From Eledone cirrhosa (taxonomy: Eukaryota): DNA of 64,000 nucleotides. Both the position numbers and the translations under genes were made by a program. Where the stretch lies: assembly GCA_964016885.1 (NCBI GenBank), contig OZ024740.1, positions 126,418,001 through 126,482,000 of the forward strand. The letters are read 5' to 3'. Positions 1-58,200 of the stretch are shown piece after piece. Position 1 is the first letter of the stretch. Each line of letters opens with the position of its first letter. The notes under the pieces were generated by a model, which was not told the origin of the DNA, did not search any database, and saw only the letters and a list, made by a program, of their open reading frames with translations.

Positions 1-901
1 TTTGGAATGGTTTTCTGTATTGCATTCAGGAATTGCGAGCATGGTGTTTACCTCCGATATCGAACCTCAGGCAGCATATTTAACATCAGGCGCTTTGCTG
101 CGAAGACAAAGGTGTTTACATCAATCATAAGAGACCTCTTGTATGCAGATGATTGCGATCTTGTAGCGCACACAGAGAGTGATATGCAGCACATTTTGAA
201 TGCATTTTCTGACGCTTGCACTGCCCTGGGTTTGACTGTCAGTCTCAAGAAAACCGTCGTCATGTACCAACCTGCCCCTAGTAAGCAGTACACTGAGCCA
301 AACATCTATGTGTATGGCAAACGACTTGGAGTGGTTGATCAGTTTGTCTACCTGGGAAGCACTGTCAATCGATACGGCAACCTTGACAGTGAAATCTCAC
401 TTAGGATTAGGAAAGCAAGTGATGCTTTCGGAAAGCTAGAAAAGCGACTCTGGGGTCGGCGAGACATATGCAGGTGGACAAAGGTAAAGGTGTACAGGGC
501 ATGTGTACTCTCTTGTCTTCTTTATGCCTGCGAGACCTGGGTCACATATTGACACCACCTTAAGCAATTGGAGCGTTTCCATCAGATGTGTCTCAGACGG
601 ATCCATGGCGTTTACTGGAGGGACCACATCAGTGATGTCGAGATTTTGGAAAGCTCTATGTGTGACAGTATAGAAGCTCTTGTGCTTAAGCAACGACTCC
701 GTTGGAGTGGTCACCTTGCCAGGATGAAGGATTCTAGAATACCAAAACAACTCTTTTATGGTGAGTTGGTTAAAGGAAAACGGCCGCCACATAAACCAAA
801 AAAAGAGGTATAAGGATTCCTTGAAAGCCTCTCTGAAAGACGCTAACATCTCTGCTGATACATGGAAAAATGTTGCTGCTGATCGTAATAAATGGAGAAA
901 G
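1..901 (+). mobile_element. RTE-clade non-LTR retrotransposon, decayed 3' part of RT ORF
   Basis: ORFs 7-552, 568-813 and 758-958 give [42 protein letters not shown] and A.DR.KWRK, typical of the RTE RT C-terminus. In-frame TGA at 550-552 and a frameshift near 805. Ends abruptly at the (CATA)n tract. Confidence 0.9.
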
Positions 902-950
902 ACATACATACATACATACATACATACATACATACATACATACATACATA
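902..950 (+). repeat. (CATA)n tract 1 (~12 units)
   Basis: Perfect tetranucleotide run between the RTE remnant and R4-like copy 1. Confidence 0.97.
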
Positions 951-3900
951 AATGGTGACCGTTGTGGTCAGTGTCCGATAATCGGACGTGTGTAATTACG
1001 GCTTACATGAAGGCAACATACCATATATTGGAAAAAGTTGAGCTACATTACGCGGTAAGATTACATACAATAATTCTACATAAGTGTTTGAACTGTAAGT
1101 GTGTTGTAAAACACCTATTTATATGAACGATACATACACTTATGATATATGAACGATACATACACTTTAACATATAAATGCAACGTTGTTATATTACATT
1201 TATAAAGAAATATACAAGTAACGTTTTCGATTCAGAAACAAAAATATAAGTGTTTGAACTGTGAATATGTTGTGAATAGGTTGTTGAACACCTATTTATA
1301 TGAATGATACATACACTTTAACATATAAATACAGCGTTGTTATATTATATTACATTCATAAAGGAATATACTAATTAACCGTTCTTTTTGTTCACGATTC
1401 AAACGATTCAAGAACAACGTTTAAAACACAGTTGTAAAATTAAAAACTAACTGAAAAGAAATATTACCCAAGCTGTGAATAACTTTAAATTTGATTCTGA
1501 CAGAACTTTGTCGTAACTTTTAAAGAAGATCATCGACTATTTTGAAAAATAAATACGAAATATTAGTGAATAGACGAACACATCATGGCAAAAAGTACAA
1601 GTCTCCTTCGACCAAATCGCGACTACAACCGTTGTACACAGTGGAGCTACGAGCTTAACAAAGTATTATATGAAGCATACAAACAATCTGAACCCCAAAA
1701 GTTCGGTTTTATGCAAAGGCTAAAAACTTTATGGAACTCCAAACACCCAGAATTAGACTTTTCTCCAAAGCATCTAAATGAACAGGCAAAACGTATCATT
1801 AGATGTAAATTGATACATCTAACGGAATTGAGAGATACTACAAATACAGCCCTTGTAGACAACCACCCCACCTCCACTGACAGACAAAGACAATGGCCAG
1901 CTAAATCTAACAGTGAACAGCTCACCAACAATTTTGCTGAAATCCATCCCACTTCCACTGAAGAACAGCGAGAAAGGTCAGCTGACTCTAGTAGTAATTG
2001 TCACCACATCAACAACGAGGCTGAAATTCATGACTCTACTGAACAAACAGAGCACCAAAAACTTGTGGGCACCCTACAAGTGATATGGAACGATATGTTT
2101 CAAGAGATACACAGCCTTAATGTGAGTGACAGACCATACAACACTAGAGTCAGTAAAGAACCCACTAAATTGGAATTGGAAGCGGTGAACGAAATAGCTG
2201 GCAATTATCTGAAGGCTATACGATCTAAAGGTGTAGAAACGACATTTGAAACGCTTAATGTTTTGTTATATGTTTCAGCTGTCACATTGCTATCATATAA
2301 CACACATCTAAAACCACGCAATCAAGATACAAACAGAAAGCCTGAACCAGCGTGGATGCGAAATTTAAAAAGCAAAATTTTGTCCCTGAGACGAAGTATC
2401 TCACACATCGCAGTCGTTATGAAATGCAACATAGAGAGCAACTTCACACGACACCAGGAAGACCTAAAGAAAAAGTTAGAGAGACGATTTGGAGATACAA
2501 AATTTAAAACTTTGAACTCCAAATTACACCAGTTGAAACAACAACTCACAGCTACAACAGAAAGACTAACATATAAGTCAACAGCACATAAACGACAAGT
2601 GCTAAATAGATCGTTTGCCAGAGATCCTAAATCAGTTTATCGCAGCTTCGGTGGCAAAAGCTCAATCCCTGTAAACGACACCCCTTCAAAAGAACAGGTT
2701 GAGAGCTACTGGAGATCTGTATGGGAAACGGATGACGGATTCAACAGACAAGCTAATTGGCTAAAAGAACTGGAACAGGACTACTGCCAACATGTCCAGA
2801 CAAAACAATATGACATAGATGGCTTAATACTGGAAACAGCTCTACAGAAAATGTCGAATAGGAAATCGCCAGGCCCAGACCTCATTACAGGATTCTGGTT
2901 GACGAATTTCACTTTCTATCGGCAAGATCTCATACGGCTGTTTACAGAAACCATTAAGGGCACACAAGAACTGCCCAGATGGTTATCAACTGCCACTACT
3001 CTCCTCATTCCCCAAAATAGCCAAACCACCCTTGCTAAAAATTACCGCCCAATTGCCTGCCAAAACATCATGTATAAATTATATACTGGGTGCCTTAACC
3101 TGTTCTTACAGGATCACTGTGCTACCAACAACATCATAGCACCTGAGAAATCTAGTGGAAAGAGGGAGGTGTGGGGTTGCATAGATCAACTACTAACTAA
3201 CAAAATGATTCAGGAAAAAACAACAAAGAATCCCAGAAACATGACTGTCGTGTGGCTGGACTATCAAAAAGCATTTGATAGTGTACCTCATGGGTGGATT
3301 ATTAAGGCTTTACAGTTACCTAAAGTCCCACAACCATTGGTAGCTGCTGTTGAACGCCTGACCAAGAACTGGTACACCAATTTGATCCTTAGAGGTGAGA
3401 AGGAGCAGGTTAAGACTGATAAGATACATTACCAGAAGGGCATCTTTCAGGGTGATAGCTTGTCAGTGCTACTCTTCGTTCTCTCACTGAATCCACTATC
3501 TTACCTACTCAGGAAACAAGGTGGACAAAGAAGTGGGCCCAGAAGTATCTCCCATCTTTTCTTTGTTGATGACCTGAAGTTGTATGGGCCAAATATCAAT
3601 GACATCAAGAAACAATTGTACCTCATTACACAATTTTCAACCGACATCAAAATGAAATTTGGTGAGTCCAAGTGTGCATATTTGGCAGTAAAACGTGGAA
3701 GAGCTGTGCCCTTCTCTAGAAATCTAGAGATGAACGGCCTGACAATATAACCTCTGCAGTCAGGTGACAACTACAGATATCTTGGGCAGGATGAGAATGT
3801 CAGATATGATGGACCCATAAATAAGGAGAGAACCAGAACTGAATGCCTCAGAAGAGTAAAGAAAATATGGTCATCAGAGCTGTCAGCATACAACAAATAC

Positions 3901-5156
3901 ATTGCCCACAATACTTATGCTGTGGCAATTCTAACGCCAACATTTGGCCTACTGAACTGGTCATTGCAAGAACTAAGCGAGATGGATGTTAAAACTCGAA
4001 AACTTCTCAGTGTTACTGGGAACTTTAACATCAATGGTGATGTGGATAGGCTATACTTCTCACGCAAGGAAGGTGGCCGGAGTCTAAAATCAATATTAAC
4101 AACATATGAGACCCGGATAGTAACACTGAAGCAACACCTTCAACAGAGGAAAAAGGTTGGCAACCATCTTGCCCAGGTTTATGAGCATGAAAAAAGAAAT
4201 ATCATTAGAATAACGACTGATCTGGAGGAGAGATATGGAATAAAGCCTGATATAAATCTCTCACCCAGAGAAATCGGAAGATCCTATTCAATGTTCAAAC
4301 AAGATTAAAAAATTGACCAATTTACAGAAAAAGTTGTGCATGGATACTTGAGGCGTAAAACACAGACCATAGAGGGGATAAACCACTCAAAAAGCCTGGC
4401 TTGGAGTTCCGACAAGTTTATGACATCACACCAACACAGGAACAAGAACTCCCTTCCAAATATCTGCTGCACAAAAGAGGAGGGCCAGCAGCTGACAATA
4501 AATGTAGGCTATGTAAAACAAAGATCGAGGATGTAAGCCACATTGTTGCCAGCTGCGAAAGAATGTCATCTCGCTACTACCTCCCCATGAGACACGATGG
4601 GATAGCCAGAACCATCTGGAACGCACTTCGGAAAACAAAATTAACAACAAACGAGGAAGAATATATTGAGACAGATGGCACTAGGGAATACTGGTGTAAC
4701 CTGAAAATAAAAACTGTCACCAAATTAAAGCACAACCGGCCTGATATTGTAGTTTGGGACCACACATTGAAAACGTGTTCTGTTGTGGAGATCAGCTGCC
4801 CACTTGCTGTAAACGTTGTCAGAAAAATACAGGAGAAGGAGGACATCTACGGACCATTGATGAGGAGTTTACAAATCCAGTATCCAAGATACACCTTTAG
4901 CTTCATACCCATCATTATTGGTGCTACGGGTTATATACCAACCCGCTTGGACCAAAGTATGACTGCACTTGGATTTGCGGACAAAAAGCGCAGCTGCCTA
5001 ATTCATAGTCTACAAATGGCTGCGATAGCTGGCACCTTCAACATTTGCAAAACATTCTTGCGATTCAAGGGATGACAATTTCTTTTCGTTTACAACCTTG
5101 CCACCAGGAAGGTGGCCGGTCAAAAAAATATACTCGAAATTAAGAGAATGAGAAGA
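951..5156 (+). mobile_element. R4/Dong-like RLE non-LTR retrotransposon, copy 1 (full length, inactivated)
   Basis: Near-identical to copy 3 along its length, starting AATGGTGACCGTTGTGGTC and ending GAGAATGAGAAGA before (CATA)n. Confidence 0.93.
1585..5075 (+). pseudogene. Disrupted RT-RLE polyprotein of copy 1
   Basis: Stops at 3748-3750 (CAA>TAA versus copy 3) and 4306-4308, a ~20-bp deletion/frameshift near 4432, and EQAGG>EKSSG. Confidence 0.92.
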
Positions 5157-5220
5157 CATACATACATACATACATACATACATACATACATACATACATA
5201 CATACATACATACATACATA
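5157..5220 (+). repeat. (CATA)n tract 2 (16 units)
   Basis: Perfect run between copies 1 and 2. Confidence 0.97.
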
Positions 5221-5879
5221 CTGGTGGAACCTGAAAATAAAAACTGCCACCAAATTAAAGCACAACCGGCCTGATATTGTAGTTTGGGACCACACATTGA
5301 AAACGTGTTCTGTTGTGGAGATCAGCTGCCCACTTGCTGTAAACGTTGTCAGAAAAATACAGGAGAAGGAGGACATCTACGGACCATTGATGAGGAGTTT
5401 ACAAATCCAGTATCCAAGATACACCTTTAGCTTCATACCCATCATTATTGGTGCGGTGGATTAGCAGTATCGGTAGAGGGTCAGACGCCATGCTTTCCGG
5501 CATAGTTACGTCCCTTTACGATCTGAGTTCAAATCCCGCCGAGGTTGACTTTGCCTTTCATCCTTACGGGGTCGATAAAATAAAGTACCAGTAATGCACT
5601 GGGTAATTGCTGGCCTTGTGCCTAAAGTAGAAACAATTATTGGTGCTACGGGTTATATACCAACCCGCTTGGACCAAAGTATGACTGAACTTGGATTTGC
5701 GGACAAAAAGCGCAGCTCCCTAATTCATAGTCTGCAAATGGCTGCGATAGCTGGCACCTTCAAAATTTTGCAAAACATTCTTGCGATTCAAGGGATGACA
5801 ATTTCTTTTCTTTTACAATCTTGCCACCAGGAAGGTGGCCGGTCAAAGAAATATACTCGAAATTAAGAGAAAGAGAAGA
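5221..5879 (+). mobile_element. R4/Dong-like copy 2, heavily 5'-truncated, interrupted by a SINE
   Basis: Matches the RLE-coding 3' end and 3' UTR of copy 3 (from ~9514), split by the SINE at 5455-5635. Confidence 0.93.
5455..5635 (+). mobile_element. tRNA-derived SINE with 11-bp target-site duplication
   Basis: A-box-like TAGCAGTATCGG, B-box GAGTTCAAATCC, core GCCTTTCATCCTTACGGGGTCGATAAAATAAAGTACCAG. TSD ATTATTGGTGC at 5444-5454 and 5636-5646. Confidence 0.93.
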
Positions 5880-5921
5880 CATACATACATACATACATAC
5901 ATACATACATACATACATACA

Positions 5922-5950
<29 letters not shown>
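5880..5950 (+). repeat. (CATA)n tract 3 (~17 units)
   Basis: Perfect run between copies 2 and 3. Confidence 0.97.
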
Positions 5951-5952
<2 letters not shown>

Positions 5953-5953
<1 letters not shown>

Positions 5954-8900
5954 ATGGCGACCGTTGTGGTCAGTGTCCGATAATCGGACGTGTGTAATTA
6001 CGGCTTACATGAAGGCAACATACCATATATTGGAAAAAGTTGAGCTACATTACGCGGTAAGATTACATACAATAATTCTACATAAATGTTTGAACTGTAA
6101 GTATGTTGTAAAACACCTATTTATATGAACGATACATACACTTATGATATATGAACGATACATACACTTTAACATATAAATGCAACGTTGTTATATTACA
6201 TTTATAAAGAAATATTACATTTATATAAAACACAGTTGTAGAATTAAAAACTAACTGAAAAGAAATATTACTCAAGCTGTGAATAACTTTAAATTTGATT
6301 CTGACAGAACTTTGTCGTAACTTTTAAAGAAGATCATCGACTATTTTGAAAAATAAATACGAAATATTAGTGAATAGACGAACTCATCATGGCAAAAAGT
6401 ACAAGTCTCCTTCGACCAAATCGCAATTACAACCGTTGTACACAGTGGACCTACGAGTTTAACAAAGTATTATATGAAGCATACAAACAATCTGAACCCC
6501 AAAAGTTCGGTTTTATGCAAAGGCTAAAAACTTTATGGAACTCCAAACACCCAGAATTAGACTTTTCTCCAAAGCATTTAAATGAACAGGCAAAACGTAT
6601 CATTAGATGTAAATTGATACATCTAACGGAATCGAGTGATACTACAAATACAGCCCTTGTAGACAACCACCCCACCTCCACTGACAGACAAAGAGAATGG
6701 CCGGCTAAATCTAACAGTGAACAGCTCACCAACAATTTTGCTGAAATTCATCCCACTTCCACTGAAGAACAGCGAGAAAGGTCAGCTGACTCTAGTAGTA
6801 ATTGTCACCACATCAACAACGAGGCTGAAATTCATGACTCTACTGAACAAACAGAGCACCAAAAACTTGTGGGCTCCCTACAAGTGATATGGAATGATAT
6901 GTTTCAAGAGATACACAGCCTTAATGTGAGTGACAGACCATACAACACTAGAGTCAGTAAAGAACCCACTAAATTGGAATTGGAAGCGGTGAACGAAATA
7001 GCTGGCAATTATCTGAAGGCTATACGATCTAAAGGTGTAGAAACGACATTTGAAACGCTTAATGTTTTGTTATATGTTTCAGCTGTCACATTGCTAGCAT
7101 ATAACACACATCTAAAACCACGCAATCAAGATACAAACAGAAAGCCTGAACCAGCGTGGATGCGAAATTTAAAAACCAAAATTTTGTCCCTGAGACGAAG
7201 TATCTCACACATCGCAGTCGTTATGAAATGCAACATAGAGAGCAACTTCACACAACACCAGGAAGACCTAAAGAAAAAGTTAGAGAGAAGATTTGGAGAT
7301 ACAAAATTTAAAACTTTGAACTCCAAATTACACCAGTTGAAACAACAACTCACAGCTACAACAGAAAGACTAAAATATAAGTCAACAGCACATAAACGAC
7401 AAGTGCTAAATAGATTGTTTGCCAGAGATCCTAAATCAGTTTATCGCAGCTTCGGTGGCAAAAGCTCAATCTCTGTAAATGACACCCCTTCAAAAGAACA
7501 GGTTGAGAGCTACTGGAGATCTGTATGGGAAACGGATGACGGATTCAACAGACAAGCTAATTGGCTAAAAGAACTGGAACAGGACTACTGCCAACATGTC
7601 CAGACAAAACAATATGACATAGATGGGTCAATACTGGAAACAGCTCTACAGAAAATGTCGAATAGGAAATCGCCAGGCCCAGACCTCATTACAGGATACT
7701 GGTTGAAGAATTTCACTTTCTATCGGCAAGATCTCATACGGCTGTTTACAGAAACCATTAAGGGCACACAAGAACTGCCCAGATGGTTATCAACTGCCAC
7801 TACTCTCCTCATTCCCAAAAATAGCCAAACCACCCTTGCTAAAAATTACCGCCCAATTGCCTGCCAAAACATCATGTATAAATTATATACTGGGTGCCTT
7901 AACCTGTTCTTACAGGATCACTGTGCTACCAACAACATCATAACACCTGAGCAAGCTGGTGGAAAGAGGGAGGTGTGGGGTTGCATAGATCACCTACTAA
8001 CTAACAAAATGATTCAGCAAAAAACAACAAAGAATCGCAGAAATATGACTGTCGTGTGGCTGGACTATCAAAAAGCATTTGATAGTGTACCTCATGGGTG
8101 GATTGTTAAGGCTTTACAGTTAGCTAAAGTCCCACAACCATTGGTAGCTGCTGTTGAACGCCTGACCAAGAACTGGTACACCAGTTTGATCCTTAGAGGT
8201 GAGAAGGAGCAGGTTAGGACTGATAAGATACATTACCAGAAGGGCATCTTTCAGGGTGATAGCTTGTCGGTGCTACTCTTCGTTCTCTCACTGAATCCAC
8301 TATCTTACTTACTCAGGAAACAAGGTCGACAAAGAAGTGGGACCAGAAGTATCTCCCATCTTTTCTTTGTTGATGACCTGAAGTTGTATGGGCCAAATAT
8401 CAATGACATCAAGAAACAATTGGACCTCATTACACAATTTTCAACCGACATCAAAATGAAATTTGGTGAGTCCAAGTGTGCATATTTGGCAGTAAAACGT
8501 GGAAGAGCTGTGCCCTCCTCTAGAAATCTAGAGATGAACGGCCTGACAATACAACCTCTGCAGTCAGGTGACAACTACAGATATCTTGGACAGGATGAGA
8601 ATGTCAGATATGATGGACCCATAAATAAGGAGAAAACCAGAACTGAATACCTCAGAAGAGTAAAGAAAATATGGTCATCAGAACTGTCAGCATACAACAA
8701 ATACATTGCCCACAATACTTATGCTGTGCCAATTCTAACGCCAACATTTGGCCTACTGAACTGGTCATTGCAAGAACTAAGTGAGATGGATGTTAGAACT
8801 CGAAAACTTCTCAGTGTTACTGGGAACTTTAACATCAATGGTGATGTGGATAGGCTATACTTCTCACGCAAGGAAGGTGGCCGGGGTCTAAAATCAATAT

Positions 8901-9979
8901 TAACAACATATGAGACCCGGATAGTGACACTGAAGCAACACCTTCAACAGAGGAAAAAGGTTGGCAACCATCTTGCCCAGGTTTATGACCATGAAAAAAG
9001 AAATATCATTAGAATAGCGACTGATCTGGAGGAGAGATATGGAATAAAGCCCGATATAAATCTCTCACCCAGAGAAATCGGAAGATCCTATTCAATGTTC
9101 AAACAAGAAAAAAAAATTGACCAATTTACAGAAAAAGTTGTGCATGGATACTTGAGGCGTAAAACACAGACCATAGAGGGGATAAACCACTCAAAAAGCC
9201 TGGCATGGAGTTCCGACAAGTTTATGACATCACACCTTGAGGGATATCTCTATGCAATACAGGAACAAGAACTCCCTACCAAATATCTGCTGCACAAAAG
9301 AGGAGGGCCAGCAGCTGACAATAAATGTAGGCTATGTAAAACAAAGATCGAGGATGTAAGCCACATTGTTGCCAGCTGCGAAAGAATGTCATCTCGCTAC
9401 TACCTCCCCATGAGACACGATGGGATAGCTAGAACCATCTGGAACGCACTTCGGAAAACAAAATTAACAACAAACGAGGAAGAATATATTGAGACAGATG
9501 GCACTAAGGAATACTGGTGGAACCTGAAAATAAAAACTGCCACCAGATTAAAGCACAACCGGCCTGATATTGTAGTTTGGGACCACACATTGAAAACGTG
9601 TTCTGTTGTGGAGATCAGCTGCCCACTTGATGTAAACGTTGTCAGAAAAATACAGGAGAAGGAGGACATCTACGGACCATTGATGAGGAGTTTACAAATG
9701 CAGTATCCAAGATACACCTTTAGCTTCATACCCATCATTATTGGTGCTACGGGTTATATACCAACCCGCTTGGACCAAAGTATGACTGAACTTGGATTTG
9801 CGGACAAAAAGCGCAGCTCCCTAATTCATAGTCTACAAATGGCTGCGATAGCTGGCACCTTCAAAATTTGCAAAACATTCTTGCGATTCAAGGGATGACA
9901 ATTTCTTTTCTTTTACAACCTTGCCACCAGGAAGGTGGCCGGTCAAAAAAATATACTGAAAATTAAGAGAAAGAGAAAA
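5953..9979 (+). mobile_element. R4/Dong-like RLE non-LTR retrotransposon, copy 3 (apparently intact)
   Basis: ~435-nt 5' UTR, single long ORF, ~80-nt 3' UTR, no poly(A); flanked by (CATA)n on both sides. Confidence 0.94.
6389..9898 (+). CDS. 1169-aa reverse transcriptase / CCHC zinc finger / restriction-like endonuclease polyprotein
   Basis: RT motifs KSPGPD, NYRPIAC, WLDYQKAFDSVPH, GIFQGDSLS, HLFFVDDLK. C-terminal CRLC-x8-H-x4-C, RHD, RPDIVVWD, VEISCP and K.DIY, matching the PD-(D/E)xK RLE architecture of R2-group elements (R4-like). Confidence 0.95.
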   Translation: MAKSTSLLRPNRNYNRCTQWTYEFNKVLYEAYKQSEPQKFGFMQRLKTLWNSKHPELDFSPKHLNEQAKRIIRCKLIHLTESSDTTNTALVDNHPTSTDRQREWPAKSNSEQLTNNFAEIHPTSTEEQRERSADSSSNCHHINNEAEIHDSTEQTEHQKLVGSLQVIWNDMFQEIHSLNVSDRPYNTRVSKEPTKLELEAVNEIAGNYLKAIRSKGVETTFETLNVLLYVSAVTLLAYNTHLKPRNQDTNRKPEPAWMRNLKTKILSLRRSISHIAVVMKCNIESNFTQHQEDLKKKLERRFGDTKFKTLNSKLHQLKQQLTATTERLKYKSTAHKRQVLNRLFARDPKSVYRSFGGKSSISVNDTPSKEQVESYWRSVWETDDGFNRQANWLKELEQDYCQHVQTKQYDIDGSILETALQKMSNRKSPGPDLITGYWLKNFTFYRQDLIRLFTETIKGTQELPRWLSTATTLLIPKNSQTTLAKNYRPIACQNIMYKLYTGCLNLFLQDHCATNNIITPEQAGGKREVWGCIDHLLTNKMIQQKTTKNRRNMTVVWLDYQKAFDSVPHGWIVKALQLAKVPQPLVAAVERLTKNWYTSLILRGEKEQVRTDKIHYQKGIFQGDSLSVLLFVLSLNPLSYLLRKQGRQRSGTRSISHLFFVDDLKLYGPNINDIKKQLDLITQFSTDIKMKFGESKCAYLAVKRGRAVPSSRNLEMNGLTIQPLQSGDNYRYLGQDENVRYDGPINKEKTRTEYLRRVKKIWSSELSAYNKYIAHNTYAVPILTPTFGLLNWSLQELSEMDVRTRKLLSVTGNFNINGDVDRLYFSRKEGGRGLKSILTTYETRIVTLKQHLQQRKKVGNHLAQVYDHEKRNIIRIATDLEERYGIKPDINLSPREIGRSYSMFKQEKKIDQFTEKVVHGYLRRKTQTIEGINHSKSLAWSSDKFMTSHLEGYLYAIQEQELPTKYLLHKRGGPAADNKCRLCKTKIEDVSHIVASCERMSSRYYLPMRHDGIARTIWNALRKTKLTTNEEEYIETDGTKEYWWNLKIKTATRLKHNRPDIVVWDHTLKTCSVVEISCPLDVNVVRKIQEKEDIYGPLMRSLQMQYPRYTFSFIPIIIGATGYIPTRLDQSMTELGFADKKRSSLIHSLQMAAIAGTFKICKTFLRFKG

Positions 9980-10071
9980 CATACATACATACATACATAC
10001 ATACATACATACATACATACATACATACATACATACATACATACATACATACATACATACATACATACATA
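9980..10071 (+). repeat. (CATA)n tract 4 (~23 units)
   Basis: Perfect run closing the array. Confidence 0.97.
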
Positions 10072-10267
10072 AGCAAGAAAGTGTTGGTAAAATCCAGTAC
10101 TTCTGTATGCGGATAGTGAGCACTCAACGACGATATAAGTTCCGGAGTTATAATAGTGACGAAACATAAGTCAATTGTATGAACTCATAATCCTTTATTT
10201 ACTGCAATATATTTTTTGATGATAGCCATTCAATGGCTATCATCGAAACATATATATTCTGTTCCTT

Positions 10268-10490: not shown

Positions 10491-10880
10491 CGTTTGCAAC
10501 AGGTATGCTATTGTCTTTTGATTCGTTGGAAACGAATATCCGTGCTTGGCTGCTACTAGTTAAATTTTTAACACAGCTGGTTGTGTCACTGCTATTGACT
10601 GAAACACGGCTGTTTTCTTTATTATACAAGCCGCTCTTCTATTTTTCGTTTTTCTTATCTTTCAAAATTGGGGGAGCGTGTTTGCAAAACGAAGCACCAA
10701 TTTAGACCCGAAAGCTTGCACATATGGTAAAAATGGCCACCTCACAAGGAAGATGAGTCCTTTATCTTGAAACCAATAATACAATTCATAATAAAAAAAG
10801 AAAATTATTTAACAATCGAAATAATGACGAAATCACGAGCTCACAAATTTCATCTTAGTTCAACAACCAATAATAATAAA

Positions 10881-11350
10881 AATGATTTCTACTAGAGGCA
10901 CAAGGCCTAATAATACCAATGATTTCTACTATAGGCACAAGGCCTAATAATACCAATGATTTCTACTATAGGCACAAGGCCTAATAATACCAATGATTTC
11001 TTCTATAGGCACAAGGCCTAATAATACCAATGATTTCTACTATAGGCACAAGGCCTAATAATACCAATGATTTCTACTATAGGCACAAGGCCTAATAATA
11101 CCAATGATTTCTACTATAGGCACAAGGCCTAATAATACCAATGATTTCTACTATAGGCACAAGGCCTAATAATACCAATGATTTCTTCTATAGGCACAAG
11201 GCCTAATAATACCAATGATTTCTACTATAGGCACAAGGCCTAATAATACCAATGATTTCTACTATAGGCACAAGGCCTAATAATACCAATGATTTCTACT
11301 ATAGGCACAAGGCCTAATAATACCAATGATTTCTTCTATAGGCACAAGGC
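10881..11350 (-). repeat. 37-bp tandem array (~12.7 units) derived from the SINE 3' tail
   Basis: Unit AATGATTTCTACTATAGGCACAAGGCCTAATAATACC. Its reverse complement resembles the SINE end GGCCTTGTGCCTAAAGTAGAAACAATTATT. Confidence 0.93.
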
Positions 11351-55244: not shown

Positions 55245-58200
55245 AGTTTTGCGAAGTTTTTTATATAAAAGGGAGGATCATATTTGTGTAATATTGCCAG
55301 AATTAATAACAGAACACACTCACTGTTTGGTTGGTTTTCGCTTTTCGCTTCTGTGTCTTTTATATCGGTTAATTTATTTTATTCGGTCCTCAATGTTGCC
55401 ATTGACTGACCAACGGTCAAAAATACAGATACAATATAGACACAAACATATATATATTGTCTATCAAAGTTCTTTCGTTGCACATCTGCAACAGCGTGAG
55501 TGGTGCTATTGTTTCCTCCCCTTGCATTGTATGTCTACGCCATCTTTATTTAGTCTGTTTATATATTTATTTATTGGTTTATTTTTTTGTCTTCTTTGCG
55601 CATGCGTTTGCGTGTGTGTATAGTGTTTTGTTTGATCTGTGTTCGTGTTTGGGTGACAGTGTATTGGTTAATGTATTCTATCTTTACTGGTGTGTGTTTA
55701 TATTTGTTTGTTGTTATTGTGCTTGTGTATGTATTTATTTATTTATCTATTTATTTTTTATTTATACTTCTCTTAGGTCAGTGTTGTTTGTTTGGGTGTT
55801 GTTGTTATTCCATTCATTTTTTCTGTTTAGCTTTGGCCTTCTAAGTTTTATTTCACTGGCGTCTCTGATTTGCCTATCTGGTGGGTCATTTCTATATTTA
55901 GATATTATTCTAATTTCTATGTAGTCTATGTTACCGTCGTGTTGTTGTCTGGCATGTTCGTATAGTACTGAACCGTTTTTTCGTCCTTTTAGTTCCCCCC
56001 AGTTTTGTTCTATCCTCTCACCTATGCTACGAGCTGTCTCGCCTATGTATATTGTTGTCATGTTTCTGCAAGTACCCTCTGTACATCTTATGCTATAGAC
56101 TACGTTTCTAGGTTTACAGTTTATCCGGGGGTTTACTTTACATCAGATGCATTTCCTATTAGTACAGTGGGTTTTCTTAAAAGAGTAGGTTTTGCTGATC
56201 AGGGATTTTATGGTGGTTCCTGGCTTTTCTACCACCTTAATCTTTAAGTGGGTCTTTCTCAGGGCCTTTCTACGCTGGTTAGCTAATTTCCCTCCAGGGG
56301 TAGCGTCCACTAACATGACACTCTGGTATGTGTGGTTGTCGTAGCATGAGGTGGCTTTCCCTATCTTATGTCAAGCCATATCTAAACTATTCCATGATTT
56401 GCTCCTGTATAATGGGCAAATTCCTTTCATGTCCAGTTCTATGAGGGTTTTATACTTTGCCGTGGCTCCTTTGTATACTCTGATTCTGTCTCTTTGGTTG
56501 TAGCCAGAGAACTGCATGCGGTTGATGAAGTGTTGGATGTGTCTTTCCATTTCTGTTGGGTCGCACATGCGGGACACGTTCTTCATCACTCGTACCAAGT
56601 CTGCGATCAGGATATTAAACTTAGCACTACTGGACATTACTGAGTTTTTAAGTATCATGTATTTGGAGGCCATGAGTTTAGCATAGTGTGAGTGGAGAAT
56701 TTGGGCTCTCTCGTCTATAGTGTTAATCCAGACTTCCGTGTCTAATACAGGTAGTCTATTGTTAGGTTGTTTGAAAGGGTAGTCGATAGTTACAGTTATA
56801 CTCTGGTGTATGGAATTAGCTATCTGCTGGATGCTTTCCATTGTGCTACGTTCTAAATCAAACTTGTTAGTGCTGTCTTGTGGGGATGTTCTTATTACTA
56901 TATTGATATCGTCTACGTAACGAGAGTACATGATGAAGTCTATGGAGCTCTCATCAAGGAGATATTTGAGTCCATAAAAAGGCTGGCAACGTCATCAGCT
57001 ATGCTGACGCCAATGGCTGCTCCCTCATTTTGGGTGTAGATCTTCTCGTTGAACTTGAATATTTGACCCTTTAGGGTAGTTTTGATACTAGCCCCTATTG
57101 TATGTGCGACCATTTTTCTTACCTGATCATTGTTTTTGCGGGGTCCGTATAGCTTTGGTCCACCCAATGCACCTTCCCATGGGAGACTTTTTAGCCAATG
57201 AGGTTATGGTGGGTGTTCTACCTCTTATGGGTCTACTGGGGCACTAAGGTCATGGTAGTCAGTGCCGTAGGTAAGTCTAAGTAGGAGGCCCAGTTCGTCT
57301 GTGTCGACGTCGCACCTCACTCTCAATGATCATCTCCACACATTTTTCTACAGCGAATTCAATGTTAATGGATGGGCACAGTGATACCACATCCATGCTG
57401 CCTATTATACAGTTGGATAGGTTCCTATTTTTGTTGAACTCACTGATTCTGCTGAGGAGTTCCTCTGTACTGTCACATACCTCAGGGGACATCTTGATTA
57501 TGGGGCGTATAACCATTGAGAGGAAGTAGGAGATCCTGTAGTTGCTAGCTATATTTGCTCCGCATACGGGTCTTGTTGGTGGTCCTGTTGTCGGGTCGTC
57601 GACTGTCTTGTGGTCTTTGCGGAGCCTATACAAGGGTGGTATGCCATTGTTAGACGCCTGGAAGTTGTTGGCAGTGCGTCTGCTTGGCTTTAGGATGTCG
57701 GTTCACATCATCATGTGAGCGTTGAGGATTTTCTCTCTCCCATCATGTATTTGCTGTGCGATTTCGCTCGTGTTGGTGATGTGGGGTTGCATAGCCTTGA
57801 TGTATTTCGGCATACTGTCTATTGACATCCTACCAGGCTTATCCGTGGGTAGACATACTACATCACCATCCCTTGTGCGCTGCTTGTGGCTAATCAAGCC
57901 TTCTACAGGTTTCCTCCCAAGTTGTTGGACCTCTGTCTCTTAGTTTACCGGTCTAATATTTGTCTAACTTATTAGTAGCTATGGTGAACTGTGCCTCTGT
58001 CTCGTCATCTATTCGTTGTGGTATGCAAACTCTTTTATTAAAGGATAACCTCGTAGGATAGATATTACCCATCTTATATGTATTGTCAGCTGGGTCGAAG
58101 AATAGTTTCTCTAAGGGGTTGTCATAATATCTATCGTCCTATTAGTGTGTGTTGCTGTTATTGTTATTATGGTGGTTGTTGTTGTTCCTCAGCATTATTA

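Follow-up and report, generated by a model that had tools for sequence, protein, structure and literature searches.

The 64-kb window analyzed here (C1:126418001-126482000 in the 3.0-Gb genome of the octopus Eledone cirrhosa) contains three copies of a long interspersed element (LINE) of the R4 clade, all on the same strand and arranged head-to-tail between four ACAT arrays. Throughout the genome, the family to which these copies belong is found in (CATA)n microsatellites, flanked by the repeat on either side and always oriented the same way relative to it, and it has been active recently. It is probable that the encoded protein binds and nicks the repeat, that the element enters through target-primed reverse transcription (TPRT), and that stacks of copies grow at such sites. 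What appears to be new is a CATA target variant within the known R4 clade, the presence of Dong-R4 elements in octopus being already known.

CATA repeats at both ends of the element

Full-length copies were represented by the 39 top-scoring 5′ matches, two of which are neighbors in one stack. CATA repeats lie upstream of 38 of these 39 5′ ends and follow all 36 visible 3′ ends, and a repeat in the reverse orientation was found at none of the 39 5′ ends. With an upstream CATA repeat expected at about 1% of positions per strand, a background taken from the window and the sampled loci, chance is ruled out for the 5′ junctions. On contig C1, ACAT stands within 6 nucleotides (nt) of 57 of the 68 exact 5′ ends, and the other 11, read singly, all carry CATA-type repeat, one of them as a short degenerate spacer only; six further 5′ ends on contig C2 that miss this measure carry it as well. 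The initial annotation had held that the family is specific for the CATA/TATG tetranucleotide, and had named a lack of CATA at most 5′ junctions as the outcome that would tell against it. Tabulation of the flanks turned out the other way for the full-length sample, for all 68 ends on C1 and for most truncated copies, and the presumed cleavage specificity of the protein is read from these genomic junction statistics.

Truncated copies were sampled as the first 30 3′ ends on C1, with junctions read by eye. Eight ran past 1.5 kb, and among the 22 visible 5′ ends 15 abut CATA and two more have it within about 30 nt. Because the repeat also abuts truncated 5′ ends, it is not merely a 3′ tail of the element or a part of its 5′ untranslated region (UTR). 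The consensus following the same 30 3′ ends is ACATACATAC; 26 of the 30 flanks pass a two-unit test, none is of TAA type, and ACATA makes up the first five bases past the 3′ end in 26-27 of 28 anchored copies. The choice of target does not extend to any AT-rich repeat, since elsewhere in the window 85 (TA)6+ runs stand against 5 (CATA)3+ runs, and the far commoner (TA)n is largely unused by the family. Variant hexamers are weakly common to the 5′ and 3′ arrays of one locus (permutation p = 0.039, 24/39 loci). Raw reads from another sample contain a truncated copy with CATA repeats upstream, and contigs of another organism hold the 3′ end of the element followed by ACATACAT.

Copy number and recent activity

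Exact pattern counts over the whole genome gave 316 5′ ends and 4,660 3′ ends for the window family, and read depth in other sequencing runs climbs steeply toward the 3′ end of the element. Open reading frames (ORFs) of 1165-1169 amino acids (aa) were found in 11 of the 39 top-scoring copies, a sample biased to young copies, and two copies on different contigs (C9 and C4) are identical across 3,510 nt, which together indicate that the family was recently active and recently amplified. Stacking is not confined to the window, a family member being present directly upstream in six of 39 other full-length copies. Among four further loci (L083, L088, L100, and L052), stubs of about 8 to 80 nt from the element's own 5′ end, followed by CATA repeats, stand immediately upstream of a complete copy, and one copy is made up of a 5′ end joined to a 3′ end, a picture suggestive of 5′ joining that was abortive or of template jumps.

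The three-copy stack in the window

The stack occupies positions 902 to 10071 of the window, with all copies and arrays on the plus strand. An (ACAT)12 array (902..950, 12.2 perfect units) forms the 5′ flank of copy 1 (951..5155), which is full-length and defective, with in-frame stops at 3748 and 4306 and a 19-nt deletion near 4432. After an (ACAT)16 array (5156..5221, 16.5 perfect units) comes copy 2 (5222..5878), a 5′-truncated copy beginning near the element's nt 3560 and consisting of its last ~470 nt plus a 181-nt insert (5455..5635) that resembles a short interspersed element (SINE), is bordered by an 11-bp target-site duplication (TSD) at 5444-5454 and 5636-5646, and has similar sequences at other places in the window. 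An (ACAT)18 array (5879..5951, 18.2 perfect units) then leads into copy 3 (5952..9978), full-length at 4,027 nt, which is followed on its 3′ side by an (ACAT)23 array (9979..10071, 23.2 perfect units). Most of this agrees with the initial annotation, which described three same-orientation copies bounded by pure (CATA)n, only one of them intact, with neither poly(A) nor any other TSD; no poly(A) tail and no unique TSD were found at the three window copies. Its array lengths of 12, 16, and 23 units stand, and the third array, given there as 17, has 18.2.

Copy 1 belongs to a long-5′UTR subfamily (633 nt up to the ATG) that is older than the young, short-5′UTR subfamily of copy 3 (435 nt). With copies on other contigs, copy 3 shares 99.6-99.8% identity, against 97.9% with copy 1. 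Since copy 3 is closer to copies on other contigs than to copy 1, and since the subfamilies differ, the stack consists of three independent insertions, differing in subfamily and age. The two outer flanks do not join up into a single interrupted host sequence: to the left stands the ORF of an RTE-clade LINE (1..901, plus strand, with a match to RVT_1), cut mid-frame at the first CATA array, and to the right the end of a different dispersed repeat (10072..10256). The latter repeat (also at L114-L122) has 831 candidates in the genome and internal inverted similarity, and it is possibly a TA-targeting DNA transposon or a miniature inverted-repeat transposable element. Elsewhere in the window there is a 37-bp minisatellite of 13 copies with 98% matches (10871-11350), as well as, on the minus strand (56371-56991), an open frame of 206 aa that contains a YVDD motif and that we take to resemble a Penelope-like reverse transcriptase fragment.

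The protein encoded by copy 3

Copy 3 carries an intact single ORF of 1169 aa (6389..9898, plus strand), within a stop-free frame at 6374-9898 that has its Met at 6389. The reverse transcriptase (RT) core spans 7811..8566 (aa 475-726), with FFVDD at 659 and a Pfam RVT_1 match at E 1e-24. A CCHC zinc knuckle of the form CX2CX8HX4C follows at 9326..9379 (aa 980-997), and after it the motifs of a restriction-like endonuclease (RLE) at 9413..9664 (aa 1009-1092), namely RHD at 1009, RPD at 1058, and VEISC...QEKE at 1074-1092, names that we presume to correspond to those in use for R2 and R4. The uninterrupted RT-CCHC-RLE frame reported from the sequence alone is thus borne out, and the C-terminal CCHC and RLE motifs are kept in homologues. 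Pfam returned only RVT_1 and a sub-threshold zf-RVT on this protein, with no apurinic/apyrimidinic endonuclease (APE) at the N-terminus. An AlphaFold model of the 1169-aa protein has a mean predicted local distance difference test (pLDDT) score of 85.8, and a Foldseek search with the model gave R2 proteins as best matches (E 1e-34 to 1e-28), with LINE-1 behind.

At the N-terminus the model contains a three-helix domain (6434..6625, aa 16-79) of Myb/SANT-like appearance, which is predicted to bind DNA. In a VIA search with these residues, the leading matches were Zeste (Z 6.0, root-mean-square deviation 2.5, 64 aligned residues), TRF1 (5.7), and the Myb of CDC5 (5.5), and the top rows were mostly Myb/SANT proteins at middling scores (Z 4.2-6.0, deviation 2-4 Å, 50-65 residues); an Atlas comparison gave a weak lead to Rap1-Myb at 0.85. 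No Myb match was obtained for this domain in Pfam and PDB sequence searches, and no N-terminal C2H2 zinc-finger pattern was seen by eye in the homologue alignment. The domain is conserved, with invariant residues, and its assignment is in keeping with the N-terminal Myb/SANT-like domain reported for R4/Dong elements (PMC7998251).

Clade placement and relatives

That the window family belongs to the R4 clade, as proposed by the initial annotation, finds backing in its architecture, in the structure search, and, more tentatively, in a tree. The single ORF has the order by which the clade is recognized, that is, RT, then CCHC, then RLE. The nearest named homologue is a protein of Argonauta hians (64% across the RT region). 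A Teladorsagia R4-like protein aligns over aa 127-1165 at 25% identity (E 2e-75), and to this nematode protein the window protein is much closer than to R2, for which the sequence match is confined to the RT (E 1e-29). A quick RT tree was built from 74 rows, with two low-coverage loci dropped and with no named Dong, Rex6, R2, NeSL, or HERO sequences; in it the window protein pairs, as sister, with that of Argonauta inside a 23-row clade (support 100), which holds a second R4-type family of the same genome on a separate branch. This clade lies beside a TAA-ending group and a group of nematode and rotifer R4-like proteins, and the three are joined against RTE and CR1 outgroups with support 94.

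Metagenome relatives were taken as 80 loci kept out of 428 related ones, of which 35 have a visible 3′ region; a TAA-type run follows the ORF in 20 of the 35, and a CATA run stands at the end in none. A close homologue, L153, has only a CATA-like stretch of two units some 200 nt past its ORF, which was not counted as a target. One of the relatives abuts large-subunit (LSU) rRNA: an intact 1241-aa R4-like element (L207:174-4196) lies directly upstream of eukaryotic LSU rRNA, and it falls in a clade with rotifer proteins. Around the window copies no rRNA match was found, and the flanks at other loci are microsatellites. The search for close non-octopus homologues yielded one fragment without ends in genome contigs and none in viral contigs. 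A 2.3-kb contig assigned to a cyanobacterial metagenome-assembled genome (L265, JBCBFY010000318.1) encodes an R4/Dong-like protein and is probably eukaryotic contamination. At the 5′ end of the window family only weak shared hairpins were seen and no Rfam ribozyme matched; Rfam matches to mir-297 and mir-1277, below the gathering score, were set aside as chance likeness to the repeat.

Other probable users of the CATA arrays

The second R4-type family (L245-L264, e.g., C1:46165889) shares about 47% amino-acid identity with the window family, is about 4.1 kb long, and has 602 exact 5′ ends. It too is bounded by CATA, in that the repeat precedes all 20 of the 5′ ends sampled and follows most of the 3′ ends that are visible. 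No intact ORF was present among the 20 sampled copies, the longest being 832 aa.

Elements of the RTE type meet the same arrays from the other side. The young RTE LINE family that flanks the window copies (L062-L072; L112) has 731 candidates, its 3′ end being followed by (ATGT)n, and a 610-nt non-coding RTE-type SINE (upstream flank of L092; L289-L308) has 27,052 exact 3′ ends. An inverted RTE or SINE 3′ end comes right after the R4 3′ array in 8 of 30 unbiased copies and in 15 of 36 full-length copies, three of the latter having been classed by references from those same loci, and such an end was never seen to abut the R4 3′ array in the same orientation. We had considered that RTE makes the target as its own tail, an idea set aside on finding that SINE copies carry repeats at both ends: 20 unbiased copies have TA- or TATG-type repeats on both sides, and by the TATG criterion 11 of 20 3′ ends and 13 of 20 5′ ends qualify. 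Because repeats stand at both SINE ends, the RTE LINE and the SINE are more likely co-users of the arrays whose preference is less strict and extends to (TA)n.

Mechanism and alternative explanations

Insertion is probably brought about by a protein that recognizes the repeat, and would proceed as follows. The N-terminal Myb-like domain would bind (CATA)n, the RLE would nick the TATG strand near an AA/CATA junction, and the element RNA would be copied into the nick by TPRT with frequent 5′ truncation, these features being taken over from R2. Insertion inside an array would leave repeat on both sides, and later copies would land beside earlier ones; head-to-tail stacks would grow because repeat remains on both sides of each insertion, and they would come to include the other R4 family bounded by CATA as well as oppositely oriented RTE LINEs and SINEs. 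It is in this limited sense, that repeat remains, that the target can be called regenerated on both sides, as the initial annotation had put it. Protein-level recognition of (CATA)n, the nick position, TPRT itself, and a shift from the TAA target of the relatives are presumed steps of this scheme.

Several observations weigh against it. Four of the 30 3′ flanks in the truncated-copy sample fall short of two units, and one of the 30 is A-rich. Truncated copy L134 has no CATA upstream, L144 has the repeat in reverse orientation, and three of the 22 visible 5′ ends finish in internal deletions; with these deletions set aside, CATA stands at 15-17 of 19 resolvable ends. Between the 5′ and 3′ arrays, neither the three single-motif correlations nor the length correlation reached significance (p 0.08-0.6); the junctions examined included no true empty allele, and TSD length is unreadable inside a repeat array. 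An HDV-like (hepatitis delta virus-like) 5′ ribozyme, of the kind known in Dong and R4 (PMC3774820), was not found, our own descriptor giving no match in four sequences without a positive control while matching two of 30 shuffled sequences. Further points of this sort come from the host flanks of the window stack and are taken up with the explanation that they favor.

The alternative that survives best, although we consider it unlikely, places specificity in RNA-DNA pairing: a read-through transcript ending in CAUA would pair with the nicked TATG strand and prime reverse transcription, the endonuclease itself being only loosely specific. Any transcript from an array-borne copy could end in CAUA, a coupling of tail and target has been proposed for RTE elements (PMC6007223), reviews describe how R2 can be retargeted with homology arms (PMC13708176), and strict orientation is accounted for equally well. 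What speaks for the protein instead is the conserved N-terminal Myb-like domain with its invariant residues, the retention of one target by two families only ~47% alike, and the fact that RLE clades are mostly target-specific (PMC4640811).

Still less credible is that the element writes CATA de novo at each of its two junctions, whether by slippage or through non-templated synthesis, and so makes the microsatellites in which it is found. The window flanks favor this: in 11 of 11 paralogues of the left RTE element the ORF runs on with no CATA at the point where the window array begins, and among nine right-flank paralogues a CATA array stands directly upstream of none, (TA)n being the sequence there in most. 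With such paralogues, the window locus needs either a deletion or the addition of repeat de novo, and on the left side the former is the likely explanation. The RTE copy retains its 5′ part, upstream of the window, and its 3′ end is missing exactly at the first CATA array. TPRT cannot yield a copy with a 5′ end and without a 3′ end, so the state of this copy points to later deletion; its last bases resemble the R4 element's 3′ end, and microhomology may have been involved. Synthesis of the repeat by the element also fits poorly with loci L076, L079, and L095, where arrays of hundreds of bases show the same compound CATA/TA make-up on both sides, and with SINE-(CATA)n-SINE junctions at other loci that lack the R4 element, because of which the CATA target can be said to exist independently.

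Lastly, the stack might have come about by segmental or tandem duplication or through misassembly, for which speak the head-to-tail order and the ~98% likeness of the copies in a locus read from the assembly alone. This is very improbable and largely refuted: copies 1 and 3 lie in different subfamilies and are each nearer to copies elsewhere, copy 2 was truncated independently, upstream family members recur at other loci, and the common flanks that the initial annotation had named as a warning sign are lacking.

Returning to recognition by the protein, a wider form of it can be put forward tentatively, as something we regard as possible and yet short of an even chance. The whole R4 branch, comprising the window family, the second family, the Argonauta homologue, and many further homologues, may have switched from (TAA)n to (CATA)n via its single Myb-like domain, and the arrays may serve as a common landing site where the RTE LINE and the 27,000-copy SINE enter oppositely and mixed stacks keep growing. 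If true, such a branch-wide switch would offer TAA and CATA as a natural pair from which the retargeting of RLE retrotransposons could be learned. Near-identical intact copies, together with TAA-ending relatives that have the same small Myb-like domain, make target choice testable with respect to the Myb domain, the endonuclease, and RNA-DNA pairing.

Comparison with known systems

Dong-R4 elements are documented in cephalopods, in passages that leave the target unstated (PMC10294476, PMC8967140; for general background see also PMC13586686). Octopus vulgaris has 51 Dong-R4 families covering 92.7 Mb, five of them recently active (PMC13282606), and a Dong consensus with a full ORF exists for O. 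bimaculoides (PMC9115989); the window family is probably among these catalogued families or orthologous to them. Passages of the former paper give no target sequence for octopus Dong-R4 (neither "target" nor "CATA" occurs in them), and those of the latter contain neither "target site" nor "TSD." With the present results, a target can be named for a LINE group that is among the largest of those recently active in octopus genomes, and caution is called for in the use of octopus CATA/TATG microsatellite markers, which often lie at retrotransposon junctions. The suggestion that the target is new for R4 holds in so far as no R4 element with a CATA or ACAT target was found in the literature search, outside which Repbase and Dfam may record one. 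A screen attributed to Fell et al. in 2025 reportedly covered 4,464 animal assemblies and may already record a CATA target.

Dong elements (those of Bombyx mori, DongAg, and DongBg) resemble the window family in having a single ORF with RT, CCHC, and RLE, a Myb/SANT-like N-terminus without zinc fingers, and insertion into microsatellites (PMC7998251, PMC3812793). Their target is TAA (PMC3812793), which Dong hits in most insects, molluscs, and cnidarians (PMC7998251), whereas the family described here uses (CATA)n and forms a separate clade beside the TAA-ending group in the quick tree; the HDV-like 5′ ribozyme of Dong also went undetected by our descriptor, which had no positive control. Nematode R4 has the same domain order and is alignable over nearly the entire protein, but it resides in large-subunit rDNA, and the family here occupies thousands of dispersed microsatellites. 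As for the sequence of the target, the nearest parallel is Waldo (WaldoAg1/2 and WaldoFs1), an R1-clade element whose target ACAY covers ACAT (PMC3812793), so that the motif as such had already been described. Waldo is of APE type, unlike the present family with its C-terminal RLE, and the common target would be convergent, adding a tetranucleotide to the targets of the R4 clade. R2 (R2Bm and R2Tg) provides the best structural matches and the source of the proposed TPRT mechanism, and it differs in its N-terminal zinc fingers plus Myb and its 28S rDNA target. The initial annotation saw a candidate gene-insertion tool in the intact copy; its value would be limited by a target that is a dispersed microsatellite and not a single safe locus, and because of this dispersal the element is less attractive for such use than R2.

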